This document shows, piece after piece, positions 1 through 27,456 of a DNA stretch of 64,000 nt. The notes beneath the pieces were generated by a model. That model saw only the letters and a program-made list of their open reading frames with translations. It was not told the origin of the DNA and searched no databases. The position numbers were made by a program, and so were the translations under genes. Where the stretch lies: assembly GCF_036365525.1 (NCBI RefSeq), contig NC_090378.1:122249593-122313592 (forward strand), written 5' to 3'. This DNA comes from Heterodontus francisci (lineage: Eukaryota). Position 1 is the first letter of the stretch. Each line of letters opens with the position of its first letter.

Positions 1-3000
1 AGTTATATATAATATAAAAGAATGGACACACAGTCCCACCTCCTATACTGACAGATCCCACAGTTATATATAATATATAATAATGGACAAACAGTCCCAC
101 CTCCTGTACTGACGCATCTCACAGTTATATATAATATACAATAATGGACACACAGTCCCACCTCCTGTACTGACACATCCCACAGTTATATTCAATATAT
201 AATAATGGACACACAGTCCCACCTCCTGTACTGACACATCCCACAGTTATATTCAATATACAATAATGGACACACAGTCCCACCTCCTGTACTGACACAT
301 CCCACAGTTATATACAATATATAATAATGGACACACAGTCCCACCTCCTGCACTGACACCTCCCACAGTTATATATAATATATAATAATGGACACACAGT
401 CCCACCTCCTGCACTGACACCTCCCACAGTTATATATAATATATAATAATGGACACACAGTCCAAGTTCCTGCACTGACACCTCCCACAGTTATATATAA
501 TATATAATAATGGACACACAGTCCCACCTCCTGTACTGACACGTCCCACAGTTATATATAATATATCATAATGGACACACATTCCCACTTCCTGTACTGA
601 CACATCCCACAGTTATATATAATAAATAATAATGGACACACAGTCCAACTTCCTGCACTGACACCTCCCACAGTTATATATAATATATAATAATGGACAC
701 ACAGTCCAACTTCCTGCACTGACACCTCCCACAGTTATATATAATATATAATAATGGACACACAGTCCCACCTCCTGCAATGACACCTCCCACAGTTATA
801 TATAATATATAATAATGGACACACAGTCCCACCTCCTGTACTGACACGTCCCACAGTTATATATAATATATCAAAATGGACACACATTCCCACTTCCTGT
901 ACTGACACGTCCCACAGTTATATATAATATATAACAATGGATATACATTCCCACTTCCTGTAGTGACACGTCCCACAGTTATATATAATATATAATAATG
1001 GACACACAGTCCCACCTCCTGCACTGACACATCCCACAGTTATATATAATATATAATAATGGACGCACAGTCCCACCTCCTGCACTGACACATCCCACTT
1101 GTTATATATAATATATAATAATGGACACACATTGCCACTTCCTGTCCTGACACGTCCCACAGTTATATATAATATATAATAATGGACACACAGTCCCACC
1201 TCCTGCACTGACACATCCCACAGATATATATAATATATAATAATGGACACACAGTCCCACCTCCTGCACTGACACATCCCACAGTTATATATAATATATA
1301 ATAATGGACACACATTCCCACTTCCTGTACTGACACATCCCACAGTAAAAAATAATATAAAATAATGGACACACAGTCCCACCTCTTGTACTGACACATC
1401 CCACAGTTATATCTAATATATAATAATGGACACACAGACCCACCTCCTGTACTGACACATCCTACAGTTATATATAATATATAATAATGGACACACAGTC
1501 CCACCACCTGCACTGACACATCCCACAGTTATATATAATATATAATAATGGACTCACGGTCCCACCACCTGCACTGACACATCCCACAGTTATATATAAT
1601 ATATAATAATGGACACACAGTCCCACCTCCTGGACAGACACGTCCCACAGTTATATATAATACATACTATTGGACACACAGTCCCACCTCCTGGACTGAC
1701 ACATCCCACAGTTATATATAATATATAATAATGGACACACAGCCCCACATCCTCTACTGACACAACCCACAGTTATATATAATATATAAGAATGGACACA
1801 CAGGCCCACCTCCCGCACTGACACATCCCACTGTTATATATAATACATAATATAGGACACAGTGTCCCACCTCCTGTACTGACACATCCCACAATTATAT
1901 ATAATATATAATAATGGACTCACGGTCCCACCCCCTGCACTGACACATCCCACAGTTATATATAATACATAATATAGGACACACTGTCCCACCTCCTGCA
2001 CTGACACATCCCACAGTTATATATAATATATAATAATGGACACACAGTCCCACCTCCTGCACTGACACATCCCACAGTTATATGTAATATAGATTAATGG
2101 ACACACAGTCCCACCTCCTCTACTGACACAACCCACAGTTATATATAATATATAATAATTGACACACAGTCCCACCTCCTGCACTGACACCTCCCACAGT
2201 TATATATAATATATAATAATGGACACACAGTCCAACTTCCTGCATTGACACCTCCCACAGTTATATATAATATATAATAATGGACACACAGTCCCACCTC
2301 CTGCACTGACACCTCCCACAGTTATATATAATATATAATAATGGACACACAGTCCAACTTCCTGTACTGACACGTCCCACAGTTATATATAATATATCAT
2401 AATGGACACACATTCCCACTTCCTGTACTGACACATCCCACAGTTATATATAATATATAATAATGGACACACAGTCCCACCTCCTGGACAGACACGTCCT
2501 ACAGTTATATATAATATATAGTAATGGACTCACGGTCCCACCACCTGCACTGACACATCCCACAGTTATATATAATATATAATAATGGACTCACGGTCCC
2601 ACCACCTGCACTGACACATCCCACAGTTATATATAATATATAATAATGGACACACAGTCCCACCTCCTGGACAGACACGTCCTACAGTTATATATAATAT
2701 ATAATAATGGACACACAGTCCCACCTCCTGTACTGACACATCCTACAGTTATATATAATATATAATAATGGACTCACGGTCCCACCACCTGCACTGACAC
2801 ATCCCACAGTTATATATAATATATAATAATGGACTCACGGTCCCACCACCTGCACTGACACATCCCACAGTTATATATAATATATAATAATGGACACACA
2901 GTCCCACCTCCTGGACAGACACGTCCTACAGTTATATATAATATATAATAATGGACACACAGTCCCACCTCCCGCACTGACACATCCCACAGTTATATAT

Positions 3001-6000
3001 AATATATAATAATGGACTCACGGTCCCACCACCTGCACTGACACAACCCACAGTTATATATAATATATAAGAATGGACACACAGGCCCACCTCCCGCACT
3101 GAGACATCCCACAGTTATACATAAGATATAATATTGGACACACAGTCCCACCTCCTGTACTGACACATCCCACAGTTATCCATAATGTATAATAATGGAC
3201 ACACAGTCCCACCTCCTGTACTGACACATCCCACAGTTATATATAATGTATAATAATGGACACACAGTCCCACCTCCTGTACTGACATGTCCCACAGTTA
3301 TATATAATATATAATAATGGACACACAGTCCCACCTCCTGTACTGACACATCCCACAGTTATATATAATATATAATAATGGACACACAGTCCCACCTCCT
3401 GCACTGACACATCCCACAGTTATATATAATACATAATATAGGACACACTGTCCCACCTCCTGTACTGACACATCCCACAGTTATATATAATATATAATAA
3501 TGGACTCACAGGCCCACATCCTCTACTGACACAACCCACAGTTATATATAATATATAAGAATGGACACACAGTCCCACCTCCCGCACTGACACATCCCAC
3601 AGTTATATATAATATATAATATTGGACACACAGTCCCACCTCCTGTACTGACACATCCCACAGTTATCCATAATGTATAATAATGGACACACAGTCCCAC
3701 CTCCTGTACTGACACATCCCACAGTTATATATAATACATAATATAGGACACACTGTCCCACCTCCTGTACTGACACATCCCACAGTTATATATAATATAT
3801 AATAATGGACTCACAGGCCCACATCCTCTACTGACACAACCCACAGTTATATATAATATATAAGAATGGACACACAGGCCCACCTCCCGCACTGACACAT
3901 CCCACAGTTATATATAATATATAATATTGGACACACAGTCCCACCTCCTGTACTGACACATCCCACAGTTATCCATAATGTATAATAATGGACACACAGT
4001 CCCACCTCCTGCACTGACACATCCCACAGTTATATATAATACATAATATAGGACACACTGTCCCACCTCCTGCACTGACACATCCCACAGTTATATATAA
4101 CACATAATATAGGACACACTGTCCCACCTCCTGTACTGATACATCCCACAGTTATATATAATATATAATAATGGACTCACGGTCCCACCTCCTGTACTGA
4201 CACATCCCACAGTTATATATAATATATAATAATGGACACACATTCCCACCTCCTGCACTGACACATCCCACAGTTATATGTAATATAGATTAATGGACAC
4301 ACAGTCCCACCTCCTCTACTGACACAACCCACAGTTATATATAATATATAATAATTGACACACGGTGCCACCTTCTGCACTGACACATCCCACAGATATA
4401 TATAATATATGATATTGGACACACAGTCCCACCTCCCGCACTGACACATCCCACAGTTATATATAATATATAATAATGGACACACAGTCCCACCTCCCGC
4501 ACTGACACATCCCACAATTATATATAATATATAATAATGGACGCACAGTCCCTCCTCCTCGACTGATACGTTCCACAGTTATATATAATATATAATAATG
4601 GACGCACAGTTCCACCTCCTCGTCTGACACGTTCCACAGTTATATATAATATATAATAATGGACACACAGTCCCACCTCCTGCACTGACATATCCCACAA
4701 TTATATATAATATATAATAATGGACGCACAGTCCCACCTCCTGCACTGACACGTTCCACAGTAAGATACAATGTATAATAATGGACGCACAGTCCCACCT
4801 CCCGCACTGACACGTTCCACAGTTATATATAATAAATAATAATGGACGCGCAGTCCCACCTCCTGCCTTGACACATCCCACAGTGATATATAATATATAA
4901 TAATTGACACACAGTCCCACCTCACGCACTGACACATCCCACAGTTATATATAATGTATAATAATGGACGCACAGTCCCACCTCCTGTACTGACACATCC
5001 CACAGTTATATATAATATATAATAATGGACGCACAGTCCCCGCTCCTGTACTGACACATCCCACAGTTATATATAATATATAATAATGGACACACAGTCC
5101 CACCTCCTGCACTGACACATCCCACAGTTATATATAATATATAATAATGGACGCACAGTCCCCGCTCCTGTACTGACACATCCCACAGCTATATATAATA
5201 TATAATAATGGACACACATTCCCACCTCCTGTACTGACACATCCCACAGTTACATATAATATATAATAATGGACGCACAGTCCCACCTCCTGTACTGACA
5301 CATCCCACAGTTATATATAATATATAATAATGGACACACAGTCCCACCTCCTGTACTGACACATCCCACAGCTATATATAATATATAATAATGGACACAC
5401 ATTCCCACCTCCTGTACTGACACATCCCACAGTTACATATAATATATAATAATGGACGCACAGTCCCCGCTCCTGTACTGACACATCCCACAGTTATATA
5501 TAATATATAATAATGGACACACAGTCCCACCTCCCGCACGGACACATCCCACAGTTATATATAATATATAATAATGGACACACAGTCCCACCTCCTGTAC
5601 TGACACATCCCACAGCTATATATAATATATAATAATGGACACACATTCCCACCTCCTGTACTGACACATCCCACAGTTACATATAATATATAATAATGGA
5701 CGCACAGTCCCACCTCCTGCACTGACACATCCCACAGTTATATATAATATATAATGATGGACGCACAGTCCCACCTCCTGTACTGACACATCCCACAGTT
5801 ATATATAATATATAATAATGGACACACAGTCCCACCTCCTGTACTGACACATCCCACAGTTATATATAATATATAATAATGGACTCACAGTCCCACCTCC
5901 TGTACTGACACGTCCCACAGTTATATATAATATATAATAATGGACACACAGTCCCACCTCCTGAACTGACACATCCCACAGTTATATATAATATATAATA

Positions 6001-9000
6001 ATGGAAACACAGTCCCGCCTCCCGCACTGACACATCCCACAGTTATATATATATATATAATAATGGACACACAGTCCCACCTCCTGAACTGACACATCCC
6101 ACAGTTATATATAATATATAATAATGGAAACACAGTCCCGCCTCCCGCACTGACACATCCCACAGTTATATATAATATATAATAATGGACACACAGTCCC
6201 ACCTCCTGAACTGACACATCCCACAGTTATATATAATATATAATAATGGAAACACAGTCCCGCCTCCCGCACTGACACATCCCACAGTTATATATATATA
6301 TATAATAATGGACACACAGTCCCACCTCCTGAACTGACACATCCCACAGTTATATATAATATATAATAATGGAAACACAGTCCCGCCTCCCGCACTGACA
6401 CATCCCACAGTTATATATATATATATAATAATGGACACGCAGTACCACATCCTGTACTGACACGTCACACAGTAATATATAATATATAATAATGGACGCA
6501 CAGTCCCACCTCCTGTACTGACACATCCCACAGTGATATATAGTATATAATAAGCGACACACTGTCCCACCTCCTGCACTGGCACATCCCACAGTTATAT
6601 ATAATATATAATAATGGACACACATTCCCACCTCCTGCACTGACACATCCCACAGTTATATATAATATATAATAATTGACATACCGTGCCACCTTCCGCA
6701 CTGACACATCCCTCCGATATATATAATATATAATAATTGACACACAGTCCCACCTCCCGTTCTGACACATCCCACATTTATATATAATATATAATAATGG
6801 ACACACAGTCCCACCTCCTGTACTGACACATCCCACAGTTATATATAATATATAGTAATGGACACGCAGTACCACATCCTGTACTGACACGTCACACAGT
6901 AATATATAATATATAATAATGGACGCACAGTCCCACCTCCTGTACTGACACATCCCACAGTTATATATAATATATAATAATGGACTCACGGTCCCACCTC
7001 CTGTACTGACACATCCCACAGTTATATATAATATATAATAATGGACACACATTCCCACCTCCTGCACTGACACATCCCACAGTTATATGTAATATAGATT
7101 AATGGACACACAGTCCCACCTCCTCTACTGACACAACCCACAGTTATATATAATATATAATAATTGACACACGGTGCCACCTTCCGCACTGACACATCCC
7201 ACAGATATATATAATATATGATATTGGACACACAGTCCCACCTCCCGCACTGACACATCCCACAGTTATATATAATATATAATAATGGACACACAGTCCC
7301 ACCTCCCGCACTGACACATCCCACAATTATATATAATATATAATAATGGACGCACAGTCCCTCCTCCTCGACTGATACGTTCCACAGTTATATATAATAT
7401 ATAATAATGGACGCACAGTTCCACCTCCTCGTCTGACACGTTCCACAGTTATATATAATATATAATAATGGACACACAGTCCCACCTCCTGCACTGACAC
7501 GTTCCACAGTAAGATACAATGTATAATAATGGACGCACAGTCCCACCTCCCGCACTGACACATCCCACAGTTATATATAATATATAATAATGGACGCACA
7601 GTCCCAACGTCTCGACTGACACGTTCCACAGTTATATATAATATATAATAATGGACGCACAGTCCCACCTCCTGCCTTGACACATCCCACAGTGATATAT
7701 AATATATAATAATTGACACACAGTCCCACCTCACGCACTGACACATCCCACAGTTATATATAATGTATAATAATGGACGCACAGTCCCACCTCCTGTACT
7801 GACACATCCCACAGTTATATATAATATATAATAATGGACGCACAGTCCCCGCTCCTGTACTGACACATCCCACAGTTATATATAATATATAATAATGGAC
7901 ACACAGTCCCACCTCCTGCACTGACACATCCCACAGTTATATATAATATATAATAATGGACGCACAGTCCCCGCTCCTGTACTGACACATCCCACAGCTA
8001 TATATAATATATAATAATGGACACACATTCCCACCTCCTGTACTGACACATCCCACAGTTACATATAATATATAATAATGGACGCACAGTCCCACCTCCT
8101 GTACTGACACATCCCACAGTTATATATAATATATAATAATGGACACACAGTCCCACCTCCTGTACTGACACATCCCACAGCTATATATAATATATAATAA
8201 TGGACACACATTCCCACCTCCTGTACTGACACATCCCACAGTTACATATAATATATAATAATGGACGCACAGTCCCCGCTCCTGTACTGACACATCCCAT
8301 AGTTATATATAATATATAATAATGGACACACAGTCCCACCTCACGCCCTGACAAATCCCACAGTTATATATAATATATAATAATGGACACACAGTCCCAC
8401 CTCCTGTACTGACACATCCCACAGCTATATATAATATATAATAATGGACACACATTCCCACCTCCTGTACTGACACATCCCACAGTTACATATAATATAT
8501 AATAATGGACGCACAGTCCCACCTCCTGTACTGACACATCCCACAGCTATATATAATATATAATAATGGACACACATTCCCACCTCCTGTACTGACACAT
8601 CCCACAGTTACATATAATATATAATAATGGACACACAGTCCCACCTCCTGTACTGACACATCCCACAGCTATATATAATATATAATAATGGACACACATT
8701 CCCACCTCCTGTACTGACACATCCCACAGTTACATATAATATATAATAATGGACGCACAGTCCCACCTCCTGCACTGACACATCCCACAGTTATATATAA
8801 TATATAATGATGGACACACAGTCCCACCTCCTGTACTGACACATCCCACAGTTATATATAATATATAATAATGGACACACAGTCCCACCTCCTGTACTGA
8901 CACATCCCACAGTTATATATAATATATAGTAATGGACACGCAGTACCACATCCTGTACTGACACGTCACACAGTAATATATAATATATAATAATGGACGC

Positions 9001-12000
9001 ACAGTCCCACCTCCTGTACTGACACATCCCACAGTGATATATAATATATAATAATGGACACACAGTCCCACCTCCTGCACTGGCACATCCCACAGTTATA
9101 TATAATATATAATAATGGACACACAGTCCCACCTCCTGCACTGACACATCCCACAGTTATATATAATATATAATAATTGACATACCGTGCCACCTTCCGC
9201 ACTGACACATCCCTCCGATATATATAATATATAATAATTGACACACAGTCCCACCTCCCGTTCTGACACATCCCACATTTATATATAATATATAATAATG
9301 GACACACAGTCCCACCTCCTGTACTGACACATCCCACAGTTATATATAATATATAGTAATGGACACGCAGTACCACATCCTGTACTGACACGTCACACAG
9401 TAATATATAATATATAATAATGGACGCACAGTCCCACCTCCTGCACTGACACATCCCACAGTTATATATAATATATAATAATGGACACACAGTCCCACCT
9501 CCTGCACTGACACATCCCACAGTTATATATAATATATAATAATGGACACACAGTCCCACCTCCTGCACTGACACATCCCACAGTGATATATAGTATATAA
9601 TAATCGACACACTGTCCCACCTCCTGCACTGGCACATCCCACAGTTATATATAATATATAATAATGGACACACAGTCCCACCTCCTGCACTGACACATCC
9701 CACAGTTATATATAATATATAATAATTGACATACCGTGCCACCTTCCGCACTGACACATCCCTCCGATATATATAATATATAATAATTGACACACAGTCC
9801 CACCTCCCGTTCTGACACATCCCACATTTATATATAATATATAATAATGGACACACAGTCCCACCTCCCGCACTGACACATCCCACAGTTATATATAATA
9901 TATAATAATGGACGCACAGTCCTTCCTCCTCGACTGATACGTTCCACAGTTATATATAATATATAATAATGGACACACAGTCCCACCTCCCGCACTGACA
10001 CGTTCCACAGTTATATATAATATATAATAATGGACGCACAGTCCCACCTCCTGCCCTGACACATCCCACAGTGATATATAATATATAATAATGGACGCAC
10101 AGTCCCACCTCCTGTCCTGACACATCCCACAGTTATATAGAATATATAATAATGGACGCACAGTCCCCCCTCCTGTCCTGACACATCCCACAGTTATATA
10201 GAATATATAATAATGGACGCACAGTCCCACCTCCTGCACTGACTCATCCCACAGTTATATATAATATATAATAATGGACACACAGTCCCACCTCACGCAC
10301 TGACACATCCCACAGTTATATAGAATATATAATAATGGACGCACAGTCCCACCTCCTGTACTGACTCATCCCACAGTTATATATAATATATAATAATGGA
10401 CACACAGTCCCACCTCCTGTACTGACACATCCCACAGTTATATAGAATATATAATAATGGACGCACAGTCCCACCTCCTGCACTGACACATCCCACAGTT
10501 ATATATAAAAGATAATAATGGACACACTGTCCCACCTCCTGTACTGAGACATCCCACAGTTATATATAATATATAAGAATGGACGCACAGTCCCACCTCC
10601 TGTACTGACACATCCCACAGTTATATATAATATATAATAATCGACACACTGTCCCACCTCCTGTACTGACACATCCCACAGTTATATTTAATATATAATA
10701 ATGGACGCACAGTCCTTCCTCCTCAACTGATACGTTCCACAGTTATATATAATATATAAGAATGGACGCACAGTCCCACCTCCTGTACTGACACATCCCA
10801 CAGTTATATATAATATATAATAATGGACACACAGTCCCACCTCCTGTACTGACACATCCCACAGTTATCTATAATGTATAATAATGGACACACAGTCCCA
10901 CCTCCTGCACTGACATATCCCACAGTTATATATAATATATAATAATGGACACACAGTCCCACCTCCCGCACTGACACATCCCACAGTTTTATATAATATA
11001 TAATAATGGACACACAGTCCCACCTCCCGCACTGACACATCCCACAGTTATCTATAATGTATAATAATGGACACACAGTCCCACCTCCTGCACTGACATA
11101 TCCCACAGTTATATATAATATATAATAATGGACGCACAGTCCCACCTCCTCGACTGACACATCCCACAGTTAAATATAATATATAATAATGGACACACAT
11201 TCCCACTTCCTATACTGACACATCCCACAGTTATATATAATATATAATAATGGATACACATTCCCACTTCCTAGACTGACACATCCCACATTAAAAAATA
11301 ATATATAATAATGGACACACAGTCCCACCTCCTGTCCTGACTCATCCCACAGTTATATATAATACATAATATTGGACACACAGTCACACCTCCTGTACTG
11401 ACACATCCCACAGTTATATATAATATATAATAATGGACACACAGTCCCAACTCCCGCACTGACGCATCCCACAGTTATATATAATATATAATAATGGACA
11501 CACAGTCCCACCTCCCGCACTGACACATCCCACAGTTATATATAACATATAATAATGGACTCACGGTCCCACCTCCTGTACAAACACATCCCACAGTTAT
11601 ATATAATATATAATAATGGACGCACAGTCCCACCACCTGTACTGACACATCCCACAGTTATATATAATATATAATAATGGACACACAGTCCCACCTCCCG
11701 CACTGACACATCCCACAGTTATATATAATATATAATAATGGACGCACAGTCCCACCTCCTGTACTGACACATCCCACAGTTATATATAATATTTAATGAT
11801 GGACGCACAGTCCCACCTCCTGTACTGACACATCCCACAGTTATATATAATAAATAATAATGGACACACAGTCCCACCTCCTGTACTGACACATCCCACA
11901 GTTATATATAATATATAATAATGGACACACAGTCCCACCTCCTGTACTAACACATCCCACAGTTATATATAATATATAATAATGGACGCACAGTCCCACC

Positions 12001-15000
12001 TCCTGTACTGACACATCCCACAGTTATATATAATATATAATAATGGACACACAGTCGCACCTCCTGGACTGACACATCCCACAGTTATATATAATATATA
12101 ATAATGGACACACAGTCCCACCTCCTGGACTGACACATCCCACAGTTATATATAATATATAATAATGGACACACAGTCCCACCTCCTGGACTGACACATC
12201 CCACAGTTATATATAACATATAATAATGGACACACAGTCCCACCTCCTGTACTGACACATCCCACAGTTATATATAATATATAATAATGGACACACAGTC
12301 ACACCTCCTGGACTGACACATCCCACAGTTATATATAACATATAATAATGGACACACAGTCCCACCTCCTGTACTGCACATCCCACAGTTATATATAATA
12401 TATAATAATGGAATCACAGTCCCACCTCCTGTCCTGACACATCCCACAGTTATATATAATATATAATAATGGACACACAGTCACACCTCCTGGACTGACA
12501 CATCCCACAGTTATATATAACATATAATAATGGACACACAGTCCCACCTCCTGTACTGACACATCCCACAGTTATATATAATATATAATAATGGACACAC
12601 AGTCACACCTCCTGTACTGACACATCCCACAGTTATATATAATATATAATAATGGACACACAGTCCCTCCTCCCGCACGGACACATCCCACAGTTATATA
12701 TAATATATAATAATGGACACACAGTCCCACCTCCTGTACTGACACACCCCACAGTTATATATAATATATAATAATGGACACACAGTCCCACCTGCTGTAC
12801 TGACACTTCCCACAGTTATATATAATATATAATAATGGACACACAGTCCCACCTCCTGTACTGACACATCCCACATTTATATATAATATATAATAATGGA
12901 CACACAGTCCCACCTCCTGCACTGACACCTCCCACAGTTATATATAATATATAATAATGGACACACAGTCCCACCTCCTGTACTGACACATCCCACAGTT
13001 ATATATAATATATAATAATGGACACACAGTCCCACCTCCTGTACTGACACATCCCACAGTTATATATAATATATAATAATGGACACACAGTCCCACCTCC
13101 AGTACTGACACATCCCACAGTTATATATAATATATAATAATGGACATAGTCCCACCTCCCGCACTGACACATCCCACATTTATATATAATATATAATAAT
13201 GGACACACAGTCCCACCTCCTGTACTGACACATCCTACAGTTATATATAATATATCATAATGAACACACAGTCCCACCTCCTGTACTGACACATCCCACA
13301 GTTATATATAATATATAATAATGGACATAGTCCCACCTCCCGCACTGACACATCCCACATTTATATATAATATATAATAATGGACACACAGTCCCACCTC
13401 CTGTACTGACACATCCCACAGTTATATATAATATATAATAATGGACACACAGTCCCACCTCCAGTACTGACACATCCCACAGTTATATATAATATATAAT
13501 AATGGACATAGTCCCACCTCCCGCACTGACACATCCCACATTTATATATAATATATAATAATGGACACACAGTCCCACCTCCTGTACTGACACATCCTAC
13601 AGTTATATATAATATATCATAATGAACACACAGTCCCACCTCCTGTACTGACACATCCCACAGTTATATATAATATATAATAATGGACATAGTCCCACCT
13701 CCCGCACTGACACATCCCACATTTATATATAATATATAATAATGGACACACAGTCCCACCTCCTGTACTGACACATCCCACAGTTATATATAATATATAA
13801 TAATGGACATAGTCCCACCTCCCGCACTGACACATCCCACATTTATATATAATATATAATAATGGACACACAGTCCCACCTCCTGTACTGACACATCCCA
13901 CAGTTATATATAATATATAATAATGGACACACAGTCCCACCTCCTGTACTGACACATCCCACATTTATATATAATATATAATAATGGACACACAGTCCCA
14001 CCTCCTGTACTGACACATCCCACAGTTATATATAATATATAATAATGGACACACAGTCCCACCTCCCGCACTGACACATCCCACAGTTATATATAATATA
14101 TAATAATGGACACACAGTCCCACCTCCTGCACTGACACATCCCACAGTTATATATAATATATAATAATGAACACACAGTCCCACCTCCTGTACTGACACA
14201 TCCCACAGTTATATATAATATATAATAATGGACACACAGTCCCACCTCCTGCACTGACACATCCCACAGTTATATATAATATATAATAATGAACACACAG
14301 TCCCACCTCCTGTACTGACACATCCCACAGTTATAAATAATATATAATAATGGACATAGTCCCACCTCCTGCACTGACACATCCCACAGTTATATATAAT
14401 ATATAATAATGAACACACAGTCCCACCTCCTGTACTGACGCATCCCACAGTTATAAATAATATATAATAATGGACATAGTCCCACCTCCTGTACTGACAC
14501 ATCCCACAGTTATATATAATATATAATAATGAACACACAGTCCCACCTCCTGTACTGACACATCCCACAGTTATAAATAATATATAATAATGGACACACA
14601 GTCCCACCTCCTGTACTGACACATCCCACAGTTATATATAATATATAATAATGAACACACAGTCCCACCTCCTGCACTGACACATCCCACAGTTATATAT
14701 AATATATAATAATGAACACACAGTCCCACCTCCTGTACTGACACATCCCACAGTTATAAATAATATATAATAATGGACACACAGTCCCACCTCCTGTACT
14801 GACACATCCCACAGTTATATATAATATATAATAATGAACACACAGTCCCACCTCCTGCACTGACACATCCCACAGTTATATATAATATATAATAATGAAC
14901 ACACAGTCCCACCTCCTGAACTGACACATCCCACAGTTATAAATAATATATAATAATGGACACACAGTCCCACCTCCTGGACTGACACATCCCACAGTTA

Positions 15001-15993
15001 TATATAATATATAATAATGGACTCACAGTCCCACCTCCTGAACTGACACATCCCACAGTTATAAATAATATATAATAATGGACACACAGTCCCACCTCCT
15101 GGACTGACACATCCCACAGTTATATATAATATATAATAATGGACTCACAGTCCCACCTCCTGAACTGACACATCCCACAGTTATAAATAATATATAATAA
15201 TGGACACACAGTCCCACCTCCTGGACTGACACATCCCACAGTTATATATAATATATAATAATGGACTCACAGTCCCACCTCCTGAACTGACACATCCCAC
15301 AGTTATAAATAATATATAATAATGGACACACAGTCCCACCTCCTGGACTGACACATCCCACAGTTATATATAATATATAATAATGGACTCACAGTCCCAC
15401 CTCCTGAACTGACACATCCCACAGTTATAAATAATATATAATAATGGACACACAGTCCCACCTCCTGGACTGACACATCCCACAGTTATATATAATATAT
15501 AATAATGGACTCACAGTCCCACCTCCTGAACTGACACATTCCACAGTTATAAATAATATATAATAATGGACACACAGTCCCACCTCCTGGACTGACACAT
15601 CCCACAGTTATATATAATATATAATAATGGACTCACAGTCCCACCTCCTGCACTGACACATCCCACAGTTATATATAATATATAATAATGGTCACACAGT
15701 CCCACCTCCTGAACTGACACATCCCACAGTTATAAATAATATATAATAATGGACACACAGTCCCACCTCCTGGACTGACACATCCCACAGTTATATATAA
15801 TATATAATAATGGACTCACAGTCCCACCTCCTGTACTGACACATCCCACAGTTATATATAATATATAATAATGGACACACAGTCCCACCTCCTGTACTGA
15901 CACATCCCACAGTTATATATAATATATAATAATGGACATAGTCCCACCTCCCGCACTGACACATCCACAGTTATATTTATTATATAATAAACA
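1..15993. repeat. 61-bp tandem satellite array (~260 units), consensus CACAGTTATATATAATATATAATAATGGACACACAGTCCCACCTCCTGTACTGACACATCC
   Basis: 61-bp periodicity is directly visible from base 1 to ~15990 and runs off the left edge of the window. The minus-strand ORFs here are permutations of one repeat translation. Confidence 0.98.
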
Positions 15994-16449
15994 GACGGTG
16001 TATTAAAACAGTTGCTTCAATCTCCTGTCTTATCTATCTGGGAAATATTTCCTGTTTTGTGCATTGCTGCCACATGTGTCGATGAGAGTGTTGACAGAAA
16101 CATTCCCCTGAACGGTGTGACAAATTGGGAAAGGATGGAGGAGTTTAGAGAGGACGAGGAGCTGCTGTCTTCATCAGTGAGAATCTCACAGCTCTGGAGA
16201 TTTGACATTTTGCTTCATTCGATTCTCTCTGGGTTCTGGTGGAGTCGCTTCATGAGCACAGACTAATTATTGATCATTATTATTGACCCCCCATCCCAGG
16301 TCAGACACCCCAGGTCAGTTACTATGGAAACAGGTTTATTCTCATCTGGTTGAACAATCTGGTTGACACAATTTTCACCAATCAAAATCCAATTTCGAAA
16401 AGTGTCTAAATGAATAAAACTGAAATCATAAATAGAAAGCAAACTGAAC

Positions 16450-16850
16450 AAATTAAAGCCTGATTTTATTTTCACTATCCACTACACACTCCTGTCCCTG
16501 TGGTGCCCACTGCAGCCTGAAGGCCTCAAGTGACCCAGCAGACACCCCCTGCTCCTTCTCCAGGGCCACCCGGGTGGGGACAATGCCATGGTAGAGAGAC
16601 TGGCAGCCAGTGCCACCACCCCCATGGGTCCCATCCAACTCGGGCCTGTGGATGGACACCTTAGCCAGGCCCAGGAGCAGACCCACGAGGAGGGGCCTCC
16701 AACCTGCCCACTCCCCTCTGCACTGGGTGGCCAAAGATCAGGAGCGTGGGCCTGAATTAGAACCAGAGGATGAGAAGCAGCCCCTTCAAATAATGGAACA
16801 GGGGCCACAACCTCTCCCACTCCATGTAGACATGATCCACCGACTCTGAA
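16450..16850 (-). mobile_element. Tx1/L1-clade non-LTR retrotransposon, degenerate 3' fragment of ORF2
   Basis: The minus-strand translation LLVGLLLGLAKVSIHR...RVALEKEQGVSAGSLEAFRLQWAPQGQEC matches the C-terminus of the longer element at 42179-42718 (LLIGLLLGLAKVAIHR...RVSLEKEQAVSAGSIEAFCDPWSPQGLEC). Confidence 0.85.
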
Positions 16851-17188
16851 ACTCACTGTTTTCAAATGGTCCATGAGGAAGACCAGAGTCAGCAACAGAA
16901 ACATCACATTTACAGAAACACTCCTCCCCTTTTTTCCAGGGCACAGGCAGGTGAGCTCGGTTTGCTGGGAGATTTTCATTTTCCAGGAATTGAGTGGCTC
17001 CAGGCTTTTCCATCTGATGTGGTGGGAAGAGCAGCTGGAAGATTTATCATCGACAAGTAGAATTCCCAACTTTCCCAAGCACGGCAGCATGGAATTCAGA
17101 CAGAGAGAGTGAAACAGAGACAGTAGGAGAGAGAGAGAAACAGAGACAGTGGGAGAGAGAGAATGACAGAAAGAGAGACATTGGGGGA

Positions 17189-17324
17189 NNNNNNNNNNNN
17201 NNNNNNNNNNNNNNNNNNNNNNNNNNNNNNNNNNNNNNNNNNNNNNNNNNNNNNNNNNNNNNNNNNNNNNNNNNNNNNNNNNNNNNNNNNNNNNNNNNNN
17301 NNNNNNNNNNNNNNNNNNNNNNNN
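17189..17324. other. Assembly gap (136 N) flanked by GA-rich low-complexity sequence
   Basis: Run of N; GAGA-type sequence on both sides (about 17098-17188 and 17325-17370). Confidence 0.99.
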
Positions 17325-18147
17325 TAGACAGAGGGAAAGAGCACAAGAGGGACAGCGTGAGAGAGAGAGATGGCTGGTTGTCCCAGTGGACATTGGGACT
17401 CTGACGTCTGGCCTATATGAGGGTCCCGAGCCTGCTCATGTCATCAGCACTCGCCGGAGCAACTTTCTGGGAGGCAGCCTCCTAATTGGTCACCTCCACA
17501 CTCACTGTCCTATTAATGATGGCGGTCAGGCTCCCGAGCCTGCAGGCCCAATCAGAGGGCCCACAGTGATGTCAGGCTGGCAGCTCCACCGGGAGAGGTG
17601 GGCCCTGCTGAAACAGGCAGGCGAGAGTGAGGGCCCCTCAACATGGAGAAGCCCTCGGCTGCCTGCAGAGGAATAGTAAAATAAAAAGGGCTGAAGCCAG
17701 CTGGGCCATCGGTTTGAAGAGGGTTAGGGTTAGGAAACTCCTCCACAGGATTATTCACAGGCGGGACTGCAGCTTTTCATCCCTGTAGCTCTGTCATTGG
17801 GACATAGAGTCTCCGTCCCCGATGGTCCCCTGGCCTGCTGCCGGGAGGGCTCCTCCATTGAGCTGGCGGCCTCCACACTCGGGGGTGGGGAGGCCGCTCC
17901 GACGTTGGTAAAATACCAGCACCGGCTCAAAAATGGCCCCTAAATGTGAACTTCATTGCTCGAATTGTCTGCCCATCTCCATGGAGCCAGCAGATGACCG
18001 GTTCCCAGTACACCCATGGGAAAGTAACCCGGAGGCGGGAATGTGTCAGGGAGCCATGTTGACACGGCTCGTCGTATTTTTCCCAGTCCTGCCCAACCTC
18101 TAAATGAGAACCCCGTCTCCATGGCACCGGGAGAATTCATCCCAGTC

Positions 18148-18796
18148 TGTGAGAGACAGAGAGAGAGAAAGTGAGAGAGAGAGAAAGAGAGAGAGAGTGA
18201 GAGGGAGAAAAAGAGAGACAGAGTGAGAAAGAGAGACAAAGTGAGAGAGTGAGAGAGAGAGAAAGAGAGAGATAGTGAGAGGGAGAAAAATAGAGACAGA
18301 GTGAGACTGAATGAGAGAGAGTGAGAGTGAGAAAGAGAGAGAGAGTGAGAGAGAGAGAAAGAGGGAGACAGTGAGAGGGAGAAAATGAGAGACAGAGTGA
18401 GAGAGAGTGAGAAAGAGAGACAGAGTGAGTGAGAGAAAGAGAGAGACAGATTGAGAGAGAGTGTGAGAGAGAGAGAGCATGTGACAGAGACAGAGTAACA
18501 GGGAGAGGGACATAATGAGAGAGTGAAAGAGACAGAGTGAGAGAAAACAATGAGAGAGAGACAGAATGTGAGAGAAACCCAAAGTAGCAGAGACAGAGTG
18601 TGACACACTGAGAACGACACACACAGACAGAGACAGACAGAAGCACACATAGAGACAGAGACAAATAGATATATATAGAGAGAGTGTGAGAGACAGAGAC
18701 ACACATACACACAGGCAAAGAGTTACAGAGAGAGAGACACAGTGACAGTGAAAGACAGAGAGAGGGTGAGAGTGAGTGAGTGAAACAGAGAGCAGA
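18148..18796. repeat. Degenerate (GA)n polypurine tract directly upstream of the J RSS
   Basis: About 650 bp of GAGAGA/GACAGA/GTGAGA ending at the RSS nonamer. Confidence 0.95.
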
Positions 18797-18835
18797 GGAT
18801 ATTGTACAGCCCCTGCACTGGAAGCTGTCAGTGTG
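18797..18835 (+). promoter_or_regulatory. V(D)J recombination signal sequence, 23-bp spacer, 5' of J
   Basis: Nonamer GGATATTGT (18797-18805; consensus GGTTTTTGT), exactly 23 bp of spacer (18806-18828), then heptamer CAGTGTG (18829-18835; consensus CACTGTG) abutting the J coding sequence. A 23-spacer on J is the kappa-type arrangement. Confidence 0.93.
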
Positions 18836-18870
18836 GTATACGTTCGGTAAAGGAACCAAGCTCAGACTGA
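18836..18870 (+). CDS. IGKJ: Immunoglobulin light-chain J segment (kappa-type), germline unrearranged
   Basis: G TAT ACG TTC GGT AAA GGA ACC AAG CTC AGA CTG A = YTFGKGTKLRL, containing the FGxGT motif. Preceded by the RSS and followed by a perfect donor GTAAGT at 18871-18876 (phase 1). Too short for the ORF track. Confidence 0.95.
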
Positions 18871-19407
18871 GTAAGTAAACCTCAATCCTCCGTTACTAAT
18901 CCTTTAAATACTGAAACTTTCGAAAACACAAATGCTGAATAGTGGAAGGTGTTAGTAAGGAACTGCAGTCAATGAAATGGTTCATTGAAGAGCACTGTGT
19001 ATAACAGGGTGCCCAGCTGTATTTCTTTAGTTACATTCCCCCTTTAACCAGCAAGATATAAGTAACCAACTTTTACCGAGTGTGTAGAGGAGATCTGGAC
19101 GTTTGCAGACTGTGGTCACATTCCTGCTCCATGGAGTGAAATCCCTCACTAGACTCCTGCCAGTCTCAGTGTGAGCTCTGGGTCTCTGTCACAGTCTCTG
19201 ATATAACTGATCTCAGCACCAGCACAGTGAGACACCGAGGTCCCACCTCCCCCAGCTTTAACTCTGCTCTGTCCACTCCCTGCTTATCTCTTGTCAAAGT
19301 TCTGATGACAAACAGTGACAGCAGGGCTCCCAATCCAGTGGCTTCAGTGTTCCAGGGTTTTGGGGAAACTCTCAGTTGCTTTGTCTTTGGGTCGAGTTCA
19401 TGTTGAT

Positions 19408-20359
19408 TGTTCTGACCAGGTGATGAAAGTCTCTAGGGGTCTTTCACAGCCTTCACCTGGTCTTACTGTAACAAGATTTAATTTGAAACACACTGTGTTT
19501 TGAGCTCCTTCCAGGTGAATCCTTGTTCACCGCTTTCCAATTGTGAGGCAAAGAAATGAGCACAAACAGGTTTTCTTAGGTTTAAAGAAGAAAGGTAAAA
19601 TTTATTAAAACTTAAACTAAAACTCTAATTCAGTTAATGCGTACGGATACACGCCATGCCCCATGCTAGCATGCATATGCGATACACACATGCAAATAGA
19701 GACAGAAAAGAGCAGAAGAAAAATAAAGTGCAGAGGTTTGAGGCAATCTCTGAAGAGAGTTTTTGTTACTGTGCTTCGAGCTCACTGTAGTCCTTGCTTG
19801 TCGGTAGATGTTGCTTTTCATTGGGGCCCAGTATTCTTCTTAAACCTTGTTCACTGTGGGAGACTTTTCCCTCTTGCGGTTCATATGTCTTCAATGATTT
19901 CTGAAGCTGGTGAGAGAGATGAAAGCCGACGGGAGAGAGACAGTGGCAAGCCAGCCATGAAAAGTCTTTTCAGTCCAGGAGCAAACAGCTTTCTGAGTTC
20001 AAATTCTCTGTGGCAAGTTCAAATTCAAAAAACTACAACAGCCAGTTAGTCATGTGACGAAACTGGTCTGGCCATGTCCGATGGTGTAGTCGGCCATCTG
20101 AGCAGTCAAGTTGGAATGGGAGCTCCTCCATCCTCAATGTCTGGTAATCAAAAGTCCATTGTGGATTGAATTTGTCAGGAAATGGTCTTTTGTCCCTTCC
20201 AAGTACTGTCTGTTATTATGCCAATGTCTTTCCAGTCAAGGGCCTGGTGTTTTTTTTTAAAAACAAGTTCTTTCTTTACTCCAGCAACAGATTAAAAAGC
20301 AGTGTTCATATGGCGAAATTAATGTGCCTCATTCTTGGCAGGTGGGGGCCTGCATGACA
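19408..20359 (-). mobile_element. Probable solo LTR in the J-C intron
   Basis: Termini TGTT...GACA; near-identical 5-bp flanks TTGAT (19403-19407) and CTGAT (20360-20364); minus-strand AATAAA (TTTATT at 19601-19606); no coding capacity. Confidence 0.65.
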
Positions 20360-20570
20360 CTGATATTTATCTCTGAACCGACGTCACTGAAAATGTTCAT
20401 TTACCTCATTGCTGTTTGTGGGATCTTGCTGTGCACAAATTGTCTGCCACATTTCCTACATTCCAACAGTGACTGCTCTTTAAACAAGTCCTTCATTGTC
20501 TGTAAATGACTTTGGGAGGTCCTGAGGTGTGAAATACTCAATATAAATACAAGTCTTTCTTTTCTTTTTA
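20360..20570 (+). mobile_element. Deu-domain SINE (SacSINE1-like), 3' part
   Basis: GTGGGATCTTGCTGTGCACAAATTG...CTTTGGGAGGTCCTGAGG...AAATACAAGTCTTTCTTT matches the 3' half of the copy at 20965-21360. Confidence 0.7.
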
Positions 20571-20964
20571 TTAACTGGGAGCTCCCACAATACCCTGTTG
20601 ATTAAAGCTGAACCCAGCAGAAAATCCACAGAAAACTGACTAATGTTTGTCTGATTTGTCTGTGTGTTTATTAGACATGACTGAGCAGATAGCAAGAGTT
20701 TCAGCAGCAACAAAGGTGTTACTCTAGTGCCCCTCCCACTTTCCCCATCGACTTACAAAATACTTACGGGGAAAGGGCTCAGCACCTGCCATCGACTGGT
20801 TAAATGTCACCCCTCTAGACTACAGGTCTCCCACAATCTGCTCTCCATCTCTCTCCTGAAGGCACTATCTCTGGCTGGGGCACAGCTCCACCCTCCCCAA
20901 GTGGCCTCATTCCTCAAAGTGTGAGCCGGGAGGGTGAGAATGGCAGGCTATTCGACTGTGAGGT

Positions 20965-21360
20965 GTTAGTGTTGTCTCAGTGGGTAACACTCTCACCTCT
21001 GAGTCAGAATGTTGTGGCTTCAAGTCCCACTCCAGAGACTGGAGCACATAATCCAGGCTGACACTGCAGTGCAGTATTGAGGGAGTGCTGCATTGTCAGA
21101 GGTGCTGTCTTTCAGATGAGACAAACTGACGTCTGCCCTCTCAGGTGAATGTAAAGGATCCCACTGCACTATTAGAAGAGCAGGGGAGTTCTCCTCGGTG
21201 TTCTGGACAATGTTTATCACTCAACCAACGGCACTGAAAATCAGATTATCTGCTCATTATCACTCAGCTGTCTGGGATCTTGCTGTGCACAATTGGCCGT
21301 AAAACACTTTGGGACATCCTGAGGTAGTGACAGGCACTATAGAAATGCAAGTCTTTCTTT
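20965..21360 (+). mobile_element. tRNA-derived Deu-domain SINE (SacSINE1/AmnSINE1-related)
   Basis: tRNA-like head with a B-box-like TTCAAGTCC (~21019). Deu core GTGCTGTCTTTCAGATGAGAC...TCTGCCCTCTCAGGTGAATGTAAAGGATCCC...GAAGAGCAGGGGAGTTCTCC. Tail AAATGCAAGTCTTTCTTT. Family assignment is from recall. Confidence 0.8.
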
Positions 21361-21799
21361 GAGTTTGGAGGCTCCTGATCCTGACCCTCGCGCACACTCT
21401 CACCTTCCAGGCATCATGGGATCATTTGGAGCAGTGACCCTGCCTGACCCCAGTACACTGAGACTGATTATAACCTCACCCTTGACCTCACCCCAGTGTT
21501 GGACAAGAAGGTTTTAAATGAAATCTAAAACCTTCTACACCGACACCCAACATGAATCCTTTCTGACATGTGTTGATACAAGTCTGCTCCAGTGTTCTCG
21601 GAGAAAGTTCTCCGGATGTGTGTGTGATCTGAGATTTGTTAACACTGAGCCTGTTTCCTCCGGATAGACTGATCTACAGTTCGAGCTTCCTGTCAGGTTA
21701 ACAGTGTCTTAAAGGGACACTGAGTCTTTAAACACTCTTACTATTAACCATTTCAGTGCTGAATTGGTGAGAACCCTTCATTATAAAAGTTTAAACAGA

Positions 21800-24700
21800 G
21801 AAACATAGAAAGATTTACAGTGCAGATGAGGCCATTCGGCCCATGGTTTCCATGCCAGCTGAAAATGAGTTAACAAACCTAATCCCACTTTCCAGCTCTT
21901 ATTCCCATATCCCTGTAGGTTTCAGCACCTCAAGTGCATATCCAAGTGTTTTTTCAATGTGATGAGAGTTTCTGCCTCTACCAACCTTTCAGGCAGTGAG
22001 TTCCAGACCCCCAACACCCTCTGGCTGAAAAAATTACTCCTCAACTCACGTCTCATCCTTCCACCAATTAATTTAAATCTATGCTGCCTGGTTATTGACC
22101 TCTCTGCTGAGGGAAATAGGTCCTTCCTATCCACTCTATCTGGGCCCCTCATAATTTTATACACCTCAATTAAATCTCCCCTCAGCCTCCTCTGTTCCAG
22201 AGATAACAATCCCAGCCGATCCTGTCTTTCCTCATAGGTAAAATTCTCCATTCCTGGGAACATCCTCGTAAATCTCCTCTGTACCCCCTCTTGTTTGATC
22301 ACATCCTTCCTGTAATGTGGTGACCAGAACTGTACACAGTTTTCTAGCTGTGGTCTAACTAGTGTCTTCTACAGTTCTGGCATAACCTCCTTACCCTTAT
22401 ACTCCAGGCCTCAGCGAATAAGGGCAAGCATCCCAGAAGCCTTCTTAATCACCTTATCTAGCTGTCCTGCTACCTTCAGGGATCTGTGGACATGAACTCC
22501 AAGGTCCCTCAGTTCCTCTACACTTCTCAGTATCATCCCATTTATTGGATATTCCTTTGCCTCGTTTGTCCTCCCCAAATGCATTACCTCACATTTCTCT
22601 GGACTGAATTCCATTTGCTATTTTTCTGCCCACCTGACCAGTCCATTGATATCTTCCTGCAGTCTACAGCCTTGTTCCTCATTATCAACCGCAAGGCCTA
22701 TTTTTGTATCATCTACAAACTTCTTAATACCCCTTCCATTTAAATCTAAATCATTGAAAGATACTATAATCAGCAGTGGACCCAGTACTGAGCCCTGCAG
22801 AACCCCACTGAAAACAGCTTTCCACTCACAAAAACACCCGTTGACAATAAAACTTTGCTTCCTGTCACTGACTCAATTTTTGATCCAATTTCCCACTTTT
22901 CCTTGGATCCCATGGGCTTTTAATTTTCTGACCAGTCTGCCATGTGGGATCTTATCAAAGGCCTTGCTAAAATCCATGTAGACTCTTTCAAACACGACGC
23001 CCACTTTGACACTCCTTGTAACCTCCTCATGAAATGTAATCGTTAGTCAGACACAAACTTCCCTTAACAAATCCATGCTGACTGTCCTGAATTAATCCCG
23101 TGTTTCTCTAAATGATGGTTTTTACTGTCTCTCAGAACTTTTTCCAATAATTCTCCCACTGCCGAGGTTATGCTGACTGATCTGTAATTACTTGGTCCAT
23201 CCATTCTTTCCTTTTTAAACAACAGTACAACATTAGCAGTCCTCCAGTCCTCAGGCACCATGCCTTTAACCAGAGAGGATTGGAAAATGAGGATCAGAGC
23301 CTCCGCTATTTCTTCCATTGCTTCCTTTGCAGCCTGGGATACATTTCACCTGGGCCTGGTGATTTATCCATTTTCAAGGATGTGAAACACCTTAATATTT
23401 CCTCCCTCACTCAGTTTATCCCATCCAAGATTTCACACTCCTCCTCCTTAACTACAATGTCTGCTTTGTCACTCTCTGTGAAAAAAGGCACAAAGTATTC
23501 ATTCAGAAACATGTCCACATCCTCCACCTCCACACACAGGTTAGGTTTTTGGACTCCAATTTACCCCGCTCTTTTCTTAGTGATTCTCCGGCTCTTTATG
23601 TATTTATTAAACATCTTTGGGTTTTCCTTGATTTTACTAGCTCATATTTTTTCATGTCCTCTCTTTGTTTCCCTAATTTCCTTTTCAATTTCACCCCTGA
23701 ACTCTCTACACTTCTCCAGGTTTTCTGCAGTATCAAGATCTCAGTATCCGATATAAGTTTCCCTTTTGTACCTTATCCTACTGTGTATGCTCTTTGCCAT
23801 CTGCGGTAAATGGAGATTTGGGAGTCTCACCCTTTTTCTTTGTGGGAACATGTTTGTTCTGAGCCCTCACTATCTCCTCCTTGAATGCCTCCCACTGCTC
23901 TGACACTGATTTACCTTCAAGTAGCTGTTTCCAGTCTAATTCTGACAAATCACATCTCAGCTTAGTAAAATTGGCCTTTCCCCAGTTTAAAACTTTTACT
24001 CTTGGTCCATCTTTATCCTTTTCTATAACTGCTCTAAATCTAACTGAATTATAATCACTGCCACTAAAACACTCTCACATTGATCCCCTTCCACCTGCCC
24101 AGATTCATTCCTGAAAACTAAGTCCAGAACTGTATCTTCTCTTGTTGGTCTTTCTACTGATGAGAAAAGTTCTCCCGAATGTATTTTAGGAATTCTGCAC
24201 CCTCTGTACCTTTTATACTGAATTTATCCCAGTTAATATTTGGAAAGTTGAAATCCCCTCCTATTACTGGCCTGTTGTTTCTGCACTTTTCAGTAATTTG
24301 CCGACACATTTGCTCTTCTCTCTCCCTCTGACTGTTTGAGGGTCTATAGCAGGAGTCTGGAACCTGCGACTCCGGAGACACATGTGACTCTTTAACAGCT
24401 CATTTACAGCTGCCAACCTTTTCCAGTTGGATCACATTAACATGAAAAAGGCCGAAAAAATTCAGTCAAGGAAAGTAAACTGTGTTTTTATTGTGGGGAA
24501 AAAAGGCTAATCATTATGTTGTACTTTATAGTTTCAAATGATTATTTAAATGAAAAGCATCATCATTGTCTAAATGAACTTGTTTGAGTGGTACAGCTTC
24601 CATTGGAGGAACAGTTTTTATGTTTGTGACCATTATTGTTTCTAATATCACTGAGATGATAAATTATTCTGCTATTAGAAACTTCTTTTTTATTACGAGA

Positions 24701-25285
24701 ATCAATAGCTGAAAAAATTGTCTTAATTCTGCACGTCTGAATTTAAATTTTTTTTTAAAATTTTGACTTTACTGACAAAATTATACAAAAACAAGTCAAA
24801 AAAATGCAATAATTCAGAGTGAAACCTATTCTGATTTTGACTTTTTTTCTATTGATACATAAATTCAATACATGTATTTTATTTATTATATATACAAAGT
24901 GTGCATTCTACCAGAGACACTTGGCAATTTAGAAGGTATTTGGTTTAGAAATGCTGAATTTTGGTCTTGACACTGCCAGTAGTTTTTATTTTAGGTAATA
25001 TTTTTGAAAACAGTCTCTTCAGGTAATAAAGGTTACCGACCCCTGGTCTATATATAGTGCAGCAATGTGATTGCCCCTTTTTTGTTCCTACGTTCATTCA
25101 GATGTCCTCATTCGATGATCCTGCTTGAATATCATCCCTCCTCACAGCTGCGATTTTTTCTTTTGACTAATATTGTGAAACCCTTCTCCTTTTTTCTCTC
25201 CCTCTCTATCCCGTTGGGAAACTCAGTATCAGGAATATTGAGCTGCCATTCCTGCCCTTCTTTCAGACTCATTTCAGTAATAACT
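21800..25285 (-). mobile_element. CR1 LINE, degenerate ORF2 (endonuclease remnant + RT + 3' end), interrupted by a hAT element
   Basis: Minus-strand ORF pieces VQRRFTRMFPGM..RLRGDLIEVYKIM, MEFSPEKCEVMHLG, PEDWRTANVV..NYRSVSITS and GDFNFPNINW; many stops and frameshifts. Confidence 0.93.
24350..25045. mobile_element. Non-autonomous hAT (Charlie-like) DNA transposon, 696 bp
   Basis: TIRs CAGGAGTCTGGAACCT and AGGTTACCGACCCCTG (reverse complement CAGGGGTCGGTAACCT). 8-bp TSD GTCTATAG (24342-24349) / GTCTATAT (25046-25053). AT-rich interior. Confidence 0.88.
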
Positions 25286-26138
25286 GTCATCAAGGCAGCA
25301 TTTGAGTCTGGAATCAAGGAGCCCGAGCAAAACTAGAGTCAGTGTGAATCAGGGGGAAATCTCTCGACTGTTTGGAGTCATACCTAGCACAAAGGAAGAT
25401 AGCTGTGGTTGTTGGAGGTCAATCATCTCAGCTCCAGGACGTCACTGCAGGAGTTCCTCAGCATAGTGTCCTAGGCCCAACCATCTTCAGTTGCTTCATC
25501 AATGACCTTCCCTCCACCATAAGGTCAGAAGAGCGGATGTTCGCTGATGATTGCACAACCTTCAGCACCATTCGCGAATCCACAGAAACGGAAACAGACT
25601 ATCTAGAAATGCAGCAAAACCTGGACACTGTCCACGCTTGGGCTGATAAGTAACAAGTAACATTCGCGTCACACAAGTGAAAGGCAATGACTATCTCAAA
25701 TAAGAAAGAATCTAACCATCTCCCCTTGACATTCAATGGCATTACGATCGCTGAATCCCCCACTATCAACATCCTGAGGGTTACCATTGACCAGAACCTG
25801 AACTGCAGTAGCCCTGTAAATACTGTGGCTACAAGAGCAGGTCAAAGGCTGGCCACCTAGGAGGAAAGGCCAGCAGTTGCATGGGAACACCACCACCTGC
25901 AAGTTCTCCTCCAAGCCACACACCATCCTGACTTGGAACTATATCGCCGTTCCTTCACTGTCACTGGGTCAAAATCCTGGAACTCCCTGCCTAACAGCAC
26001 TGTGGGTGTACCTACCCCACATGGACTGCAGCAGTTCAAGAAGGCAGCTCACCACCACCTTCTCAAGGGCTATTAGTGATGGGCAATAAATGCTGGCCTG
26101 GCCAGCGACGCCCACATCCCATGAATGAATAAAAAAAA
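25286..26138 (+). mobile_element. CR1/L2-group LINE 3' fragment (second family) with RT remnant
   Basis: IKAAF..., GVPQHSVLGPTIFSCFINDLP...MFADDCT; ends CCCACATCCCATGAATGAATAAAAAAAA. Confidence 0.88.
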
Positions 26139-26329
26139 CTACCATATCATACTTCCAAGAGCAGTCGAACACAATTTAACCAGTTGAACATCAAACCATC
26201 CACTGTCTTTGTATTTTAGACTAAACCTAGCAAGCGAGGCAAATTAAGAAGTGATGGTGCTCATTTCTAACAATTCAACACCAGCTGCAGTTCATTAACT
26301 CAGCTGTCTGTTATCTGATGTGACAATTC

Positions 26330-26565
26330 CAAACACAGAAACACCCACAGAAACATACACATAAATATACACATAGAACACACAAATATACACAGAGAAT
26401 ACACAAATGTACAGACAGAACACACAAATAAATACATAAAACACACAAATATATACAGAGGACACACAAATAGACCGACAAAAGACACAAATATATACAT
26501 AAAACACACAAATATATACAGAGAGCAAAAAATATACAAATAGAACACAGAAATACACAAACATG
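26330..26565. repeat. A/C-rich low-complexity repeat just upstream of the C-exon acceptor
   Basis: Degenerate ~21-bp ACACAAATATACACAGAGAAC-like units. Confidence 0.8.
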
Positions 26566-26597
26566 CAGTGATTAACAGTTTTTCTCTTCTCTTTCAG

Positions 26598-26926
26598 GCC
26601 GAGAGAAGTCTCAACCCACACTGACCCTGATGCCCCCCTCGCCGGAGGAGGTCAAGGCCAAGGGCACTGCCACCCTGGTGTGCCTTGCCGATCACTTCTA
26701 TCCCGATGAAGTGGGGGTGGAGTGGAAGAAGGACGGTGCAGCCATTTCGGCCGGAGTTCAGACCAGCAATTACCTGCGAGCTTCGGACAGCACCTACAGT
26801 GTCAGCAGCCTGCTGACCCTCTCTGGCTCTGACTGGGAGTCCAACGCCCGCTTCTCCTGTGCCCTCACCCACGAGACCCTGTCCTCTCCCCTCAGTAAGA
26901 GTGTGAGCAGATCAGAATGTGTGTAG
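26598..26926 (+). CDS. IGKC: Immunoglobulin kappa-type light-chain constant exon (cartilaginous fish NS4/type III-like)
   Basis: Polypyrimidine tract and AG (26596-26597); splices in frame with J (A|GC = Ser). Translation (S)REKSQPTLTLMPPSPEEVKAKGTATLVCLADHFYPDEVGVEWKKDG...YSVSSLLTLSGSDWESNARFSCALTHETLSSPLSKSVSRSECV*. Has both C1-set Cys, the Trp, the FYP motif and the penultimate Cys used for the H-L bond; no inactivating lesion. Confidence 0.97.
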
Positions 26927-27355: not shown

Positions 27356-27456
27356 AATAAACCTTCATTCTCCCTGTGAATTTCTCCAGCTTCCTCTCAC
27401 TGAGCTGTTTATTCAAGTCTTTTTACTGTAAATGTAAATCTGTAAAAGGTAATAAA
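27356..27456 (+). terminator. Candidate polyadenylation signals for the light-chain transcript
   Basis: AATAAA at 27356-27361 and 27451-27456, 430-530 bp after the C stop codon. Confidence 0.65.

Follow-up and report, generated by a model that had tools for sequence, protein, structure and literature searches.

The kappa cluster at the window

The window, a 64-kb stretch of the horn shark (Heterodontus francisci) genome (G000:C8:122249593-122313592), carries the joining (J) segment and the constant (C) exon of an immunoglobulin (Ig) kappa light-chain gene, no. 19 of the 28 kappa clusters along contig C8. The variable (V) segment of this gene lies upstream of the window, and between V and J, each flanked by a recombination signal sequence (RSS), extends a 61-bp tandem array. 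The features are as follows (plain numbers are window positions; those prefixed L011 lie outside the window, upstream of its base 1).

L011:5564-5571: octamer-like motif ATTTACAT, upstream of the leader
L011:5678-5726: leader exon, followed by a 186-bp intron
L011:5913-6214 (G000:C8:122245505-122245806): V kappa exon, open, 302 bp; Pfam V-set, E 1.7e-17
L011:6215-6242: 12-RSS of V, CACAGTG-12-ACAAAAACT, facing the RSS of J
1-15990, plus strand: in-window part of the 61-bp tandem array (whole array 19.7 kb, ~324 units, starting 3.75 kb upstream of the window)
15991-18796: non-array V–J spacer, 2.8 kb, with a GA-rich tract and a stretch of 136 N at 17189-17324; the part at ~16467-16547 is like the V–J spacer of a catshark gene model
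18797-18835, minus strand: 23-RSS of J, CACACTG-23-ACAATATCC, facing the 12-RSS of V in deletional orientation
18836-18870, plus strand: J kappa segment, YTFGKGTKLRL, followed by a GTAAGT donor
18871-26597, plus strand: J–C intron, 7,727 bp, GT..AG; the joint 18870->26598 is found in contigs of 4/4 sequence runs (one sample, not cluster-specific)
26598-26926, plus strand: C kappa exon, open frame to TAG; Pfam C1-set, E 2e-23
27356-27361, plus strand: likely polyadenylation signal, by its motif AATAAA

The original prediction, made from the window alone, described an intact, unrearranged J–C unit of kappa type that lacks a V segment. The unit itself is as described: the 23-RSS, the GTAAGT donor, and the open C exon are all found, although the RSS, with 1+2 mismatches (heptamer + nonamer), is not a consensus one. 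Likewise, there is no V on either strand of the 64-kb window, where the V gene has no match by blastn and a full shark kappa chain matches only J and C by tblastn. The search of 140 kb upstream of window base 1, however, reveals one intact V gene, with the exon 3.8–4.1 kb before base 1 and the whole, from leader through 12-RSS, at 4.3–3.8 kb (L011:5678-6242). It is in the correct orientation to J, and the V–J interval is 22.6 kb. The gene is an intact, unrearranged Ig kappa V–J–C cluster and not an orphan J–C unit; the orphan appearance is an effect of the window edge, because V sits 3.8 kb beyond window base 1.

Among the accounts offered for the missing V, a V–J interval expanded by a satellite is borne out, and holds as a locus-wide rule in 28/28 clusters. 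The other two, an orphan J–C unit used in trans or for sterile RNA, and a V lost in the gap of 136 N or through misassembly, agree with the lack of V inside the window, but V is present and intact outside it, the genome holds 28 V for 28 C, and the N stretch cannot contain a V, since the V exon is 302 bp long; we give these accounts a negligible probability. The comparison with paralogous clusters, also proposed, places V upstream of the array in all 28, while at the N stretch it leaves no room for one: sister cluster 25 has exactly 136 letters there, between identical 25-letter flanks. Both flanks are present also in clusters 3 (162 letters between them) and 14 (150); in none of the other 24 paralogs were the two found together.

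The kappa type was correctly called. By identity, the named proteins closest to V are shark kappa light chains, the best being those labelled Heterodontus francisci (94–95%), and the C exon is identical at 103/108 residues to the named horn shark chain P0007 and at 91/107 to nurse shark P0040. Judged by sequence identity and cluster anatomy, the cluster is a cartilaginous-fish Ig kappa (NS4 / type III). Nurse shark NS4 is the orthologue of horn shark type III (PMC2193156).

The V–J arrays of the 28-cluster locus

Genome-wide, there are 28 matches to C, 28 to V, and 29 to J, the surplus J being on contig C2. On contig C8 they form 28 strict V–J–C triplets, with matched strand within each, in two opposed blocks (15 on the minus and 13 on the plus strand) over ~9 Mb (G000:C8:115.67-124.82 Mb). 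The V–J intervals range from 7.5 to 217 kb, with a median of 49 kb. Both RSSs are present in 28/28 clusters, and none is germline-joined (0/28), because all 28 J matches take in the RSS. The V frames are open in all 28 and encode 22 distinct proteins; the V heptamer is CACAGTG in 28/28; the leader GT donor and the J heptamer CACACTG are each seen in 27/28, and the leader intron is 186 bp in 27 clusters and 187 bp in one. In cluster 4 (L028), AT replaces the leader GT donor, and cluster 13 (L064) has the J heptamer CATACTG; both clusters are likely impaired. Inverted duplication is seen in clusters 9/23, 10/22, and 11/21, mirror-image pairs whose V genes are identical, and clusters 18/24 and 19/25 are direct pairs.

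With nurse shark NS4 and horn shark type III kappa these clusters share a single V, J, and C per cluster in one orientation (28/28 here), the 186-bp leader intron, and split genes with RSSs, the V 12-RSS facing the J 23-RSS (PMC2193156). The V–J interval, in contrast, is 502–524 bp in NS4 and is here a tandem array of tens of kilobases at the median. Type III kappa is reported as all split in the same source, whereas nurse shark kappa has germline-joined copies (9/90 phage clones), with none among the 28 clusters here.

The array starts 6–8 bp past the V nonamer (8 bp in cluster 19), that is, 34–36 bp from the heptamer start, in one orientation, and ends 2.7–5.4 kb before J; both hold for 28/28 clusters. 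Array lengths range from 3.4 to 211 kb per cluster, an approximately 60-fold spread. The entire V–J interval was examined for array content in five clusters (3, 18, 19, 25, and 26), and the others were sampled at the ends; within the 124- and 217-kb intervals, 7/7 interior 5-kb samples consist of array alone. If the intervals are filled as sampled, the arrays total ~1.49 Mb, or ~24,500 units. A 34-letter piece of the unit has 7,115 exact genome-wide matches, against ~7,900 predicted from the V–J arrays alone (at the sampled density), and no match in the 100 kb between clusters 18 and 19; hence, the 61-bp repeat appears to be confined to V–J intervals.

The unit itself likely arose by in-place amplification of an ancestral spacer that adjoined the V nonamer, because, in other sharks, predicted proteins whose models run past the V end continue beyond the RSS with a sequence much like that of the first unit. 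The set comprised 22 such proteins, eight of which were compared, covering the first ~45 bases of the first unit. Translation from the RSS into the first unit matches the tail of bamboo shark P0041 at 22/28 residues, to a shared stop, and the tails of catshark P0034 and basking shark P0029 at 19/26 and 17/27, respectively (these spans include the RSS). Catshark P0034, P0031, and P0020 and basking shark P0029 and P0027 match the first unit in another frame, and P0033 and P0080 give shorter matches to it. The second unit alone matches bamboo shark P0041 at 12/14 residues. A further match of catshark P0020 falls in the non-array spacer, near window positions 16467-16547. A duplicated RSS as the source of the unit was weighed by eye and rejected, as the other sharks have the unit sequence beside the RSS, not within it.

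The turnover of the array is seen from cluster 25, the closest paralog of cluster 19, with the same V protein and 17 differing sites over 9.2 kb of flanking sequence. The array of cluster 25 exceeds that of cluster 19 by 5.8 kb, and the two are collinear in blocks at 98.7–99.9%; direct megablast at 97% gives no long match, and the blocks are resolved under gap-strict settings. The main block offsets, ~13, 91, 94, 91, 92, and 93 units, are near-whole numbers, and array 19 has internal duplications at spacings of 5, 6, 41, and 46 units. Array length thus changes by gain or loss of whole-unit blocks while the flanks barely change, a pattern that fits unequal exchange or slippage.

It might be argued that the assembler inflated arrays that are short in the animal itself. 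Clusters 6 and 12 (L097, L091-L093 vs. L098, L094-L096) have nine differences in 40,000 bases, no indel, and equal interval length, and may be either a very recent duplication or one haplotype assembled twice. However, the units vary (the 286 of 61 bp include 162 distinct sequences), with the order kept between paralogs 1.7 Mb apart, and the paired V–J intervals of the inverted pairs 9/23, 10/22, and 11/21 agree within 0.4%, yet are unequal; such inflation is therefore very unlikely.

Probable joining across the array

Transcripts were sought in four runs of one sample; the RNA status of the runs is a tool's guess, and the splice joints argue for RNA. Missing contig cover over the RSS was counted as no evidence. 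In the search for transcripts with the window's C exon, which the prediction had suggested, the J–C splice is present in every run, but the C exon is shared by many clusters (100% identity is listed for 16/28 genomic copies), so that no V is assigned to cluster 19. Among the matches listed, V 3' ends run straight into J in 27 contigs of run X1 and 21 of run X2 (2/4 runs). Since V–J joined contigs exist and an array is present in every cluster, V and J are likely joined across it in at least some of them. The named rearranged kappa P0007 has six differences from the V of clusters 11, 21, 19, and 25, and has the FTF J found in clusters 11 and 21. Contig pieces exact to cluster 28 alone (217 kb) are each one mismatch from other clusters, which hypermutation explains equally well, and for the complementarity-determining region 3 of this cluster no loose end with J letters is seen among the matches listed. 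Other pieces, exact to clusters 18, 24, and 28 alone (at least 35 kb) and two mismatches from any other, are found in 3/4 runs and speak for V transcription, not joining.

Our preferred reading, to which we assign a probability of about 0.8, is that of an intact, unrearranged kappa cluster with an array that likely grew in place and holds V and J 22.6 kb apart, and that is likely deleted by RAG 12/23 joining. The array would have arisen once, before the multiplication of clusters, and then have been carried along by segmental duplication, its length drifting through unequal exchange or slippage. B cells would delete it by ordinary RAG 12/23 joining, cutting out 7.5–217 kb. Most likely the locus tolerates the array as a passenger, given that rearrangement removes it and that other giant satellites are found between the clusters; its neutrality we infer. 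Should the long clusters be in use, proximity alone would not suffice, and shark RAG would have to pair V with J across tens to hundreds of kilobases through looping or scanning, as in mammals.

Several points weigh against this reading. No V–J junction is traced to cluster 19, because many clusters share an identical C exon and the loose ends give mixed consensuses (agreement 0.53–0.73); the runs are from one sample, with guessed RNA status. Array filling of most intervals is read from end samples, the whole interval having been seen in 5/28 clusters. The other sharks are known here from predicted proteins, possibly with false introns, which do not give the copy number of the unit there. Finally, the nurse shark figure of ~500 bp comes from size-selected library clones, unable to hold long intervals (PMC2193156).

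Alternatively, the array may be a selected regulator, where distance or heterochromatin slows V–J joining, sets cluster usage, aids one-cluster-per-cell exclusion, or blocks germline joining. The array is kept in 28/28 clusters with a fixed start and orientation, and the absence of germline-joined copies here compares with the nurse shark phage clones above (PMC2193156). Furthermore, many units have a 23-RSS-like site in V orientation: array 19 holds 175 weak, putative sites with at most 1+3 mismatches, by mismatch count only, and an equally good site is found in 186/20,000 shuffled units, although the shuffle does not keep the two-CACAGT build of the unit. The RSS-like "nonamer", however, overlaps the second CACAGT and has no A tract; the array lengths vary ~60-fold; presence in all clusters follows from shared descent; and unrelated 36-, 32-, and 45-bp arrays of 4–40 kb lie between the clusters. 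We consider a selected role unlikely. The same tentative standing applies to the satellite as a ruler, grown from an ancestral spacer, that would set the ease of rearrangement of 28 near-identical clusters, block germline joining, and force long-range RAG scanning past thousands of convergent cryptic heptamers.

Conversely, the array may damage the locus, so that only short-interval clusters rearrange, and long ones, possibly including cluster 19, are silent or lose J to cryptic array sites. The strand bias of array 19 is strong, with 1573 CAC vs. 13 GTG, and the CAC sites face the J RSS. In mouse, scanning RAG uses convergent cryptic RSSs (PMC13190342), and those of the gamma-satellite can be RAG-cut (Cowell et al., 2003, PMC2193808); also, no junction is assigned to cluster 19 or 28. 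Yet the V frames are open in all 28 clusters and nearly all signals are intact, P0007 fits clusters 11/21 (with a 51-kb interval here, although another animal may differ), and the pieces exact only to clusters 18, 24, and 28 indicate transcription of V, if not joining. Damage on this scale seems more doubtful still than selection.

The V–J array sets the horn shark locus apart from the systems most like it. Shark Ig heavy chain (IgH) miniloci share with it many separate clusters spaced ~100 kb or more apart, but their segments are ~400 bp apart, which was argued to bypass locus contraction (PMC2435157), while the V–J interval here is 20–500 times larger; the same shark cluster picture is given in PMC5192425, PMC4279169, and PMC2192082. 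Mouse Igk has V–J joining distances of tens of kilobases and more and near-consensus V RSSs, as here, but is one translocon with CTCF platforms (PMC13190342), in contrast to the clusters here, each with a single V separated from its J by a satellite. The mouse gamma-satellite likewise has CAC-led RSS-like sites in each unit (PMC2193808); it is, however, genome-wide and unrelated to Ig loci, whereas the present array, with its putative RSS-like sites, lies inside the recombining interval. The literature searched gave no description of long or satellite-filled shark V–J intervals, and loose V–J linkage in type III may stand in older reports.

The kappa cluster family itself is known; what is unusual is the locus-wide satellite-stretched V–J interval. 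Shark Ig miniloci have been described with segments 300–500 bp apart, the basis for the argument that they need no locus contraction and for the earliest V(D)J models. If the ruler reading were true, long-range V–J joining would exist in cluster-type loci thought not to need it. The 28 clusters, with near-identical promoters and RSSs and a 29-fold range of V–J distance, form a natural experiment, in which ordinary repertoire sequencing could show how RAG joining depends on distance and could also bear on one-cluster-per-cell exclusion. Surveys based on short clones, polymerase chain reaction, or windows will miscall such genes as orphan J–C units.

Neighbouring DNA and minor features

A lone kappa J with a 23-RSS, 91% like the J of the window, lies on contig C2 (G000:C2:125446249-125446355; L077:5001-5107) amid dispersed repeats. 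The surrounding 10 kb hold no V or array, and contig C2 has no match to V or C; by these matches, it is the sole apparent orphan J of the genome.

J–C introns across the clusters fall into classes of ~4.0, 7.7, and 10 kb (one is 6.9 kb). The part of the window's intron at 21800-26160 finds no long counterpart in the 4-kb intron of cluster 6, and many divergent contigs align over it; therefore, it is likely repeat-derived.

Between clusters, arrays of 45-bp, G-rich 14/21-bp, 36-bp, 32-bp, and 23-bp units are found (window positions 28130-37864, 38174-38693, and 58586-64000; L012-L018). The 45-bp array is 9.7 kb long in the window and 4.4 kb past cluster 18, where the 36-bp array reaches 40.6 kb; the 32-bp array is 20 kb long. 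The window also contains an open frame of 720 codons at 46443-48602 (plus strand) and CpG-rich broken frames at ~42200-45500 (minus strand), which we take to resemble reverse transcriptases of the long interspersed nuclear element type. Finally, 28.9 kb of the window (35141-63998) align at 97.6% to the region past the C exon of cluster 18, and the duplicated unit thus reaches far beyond the gene.

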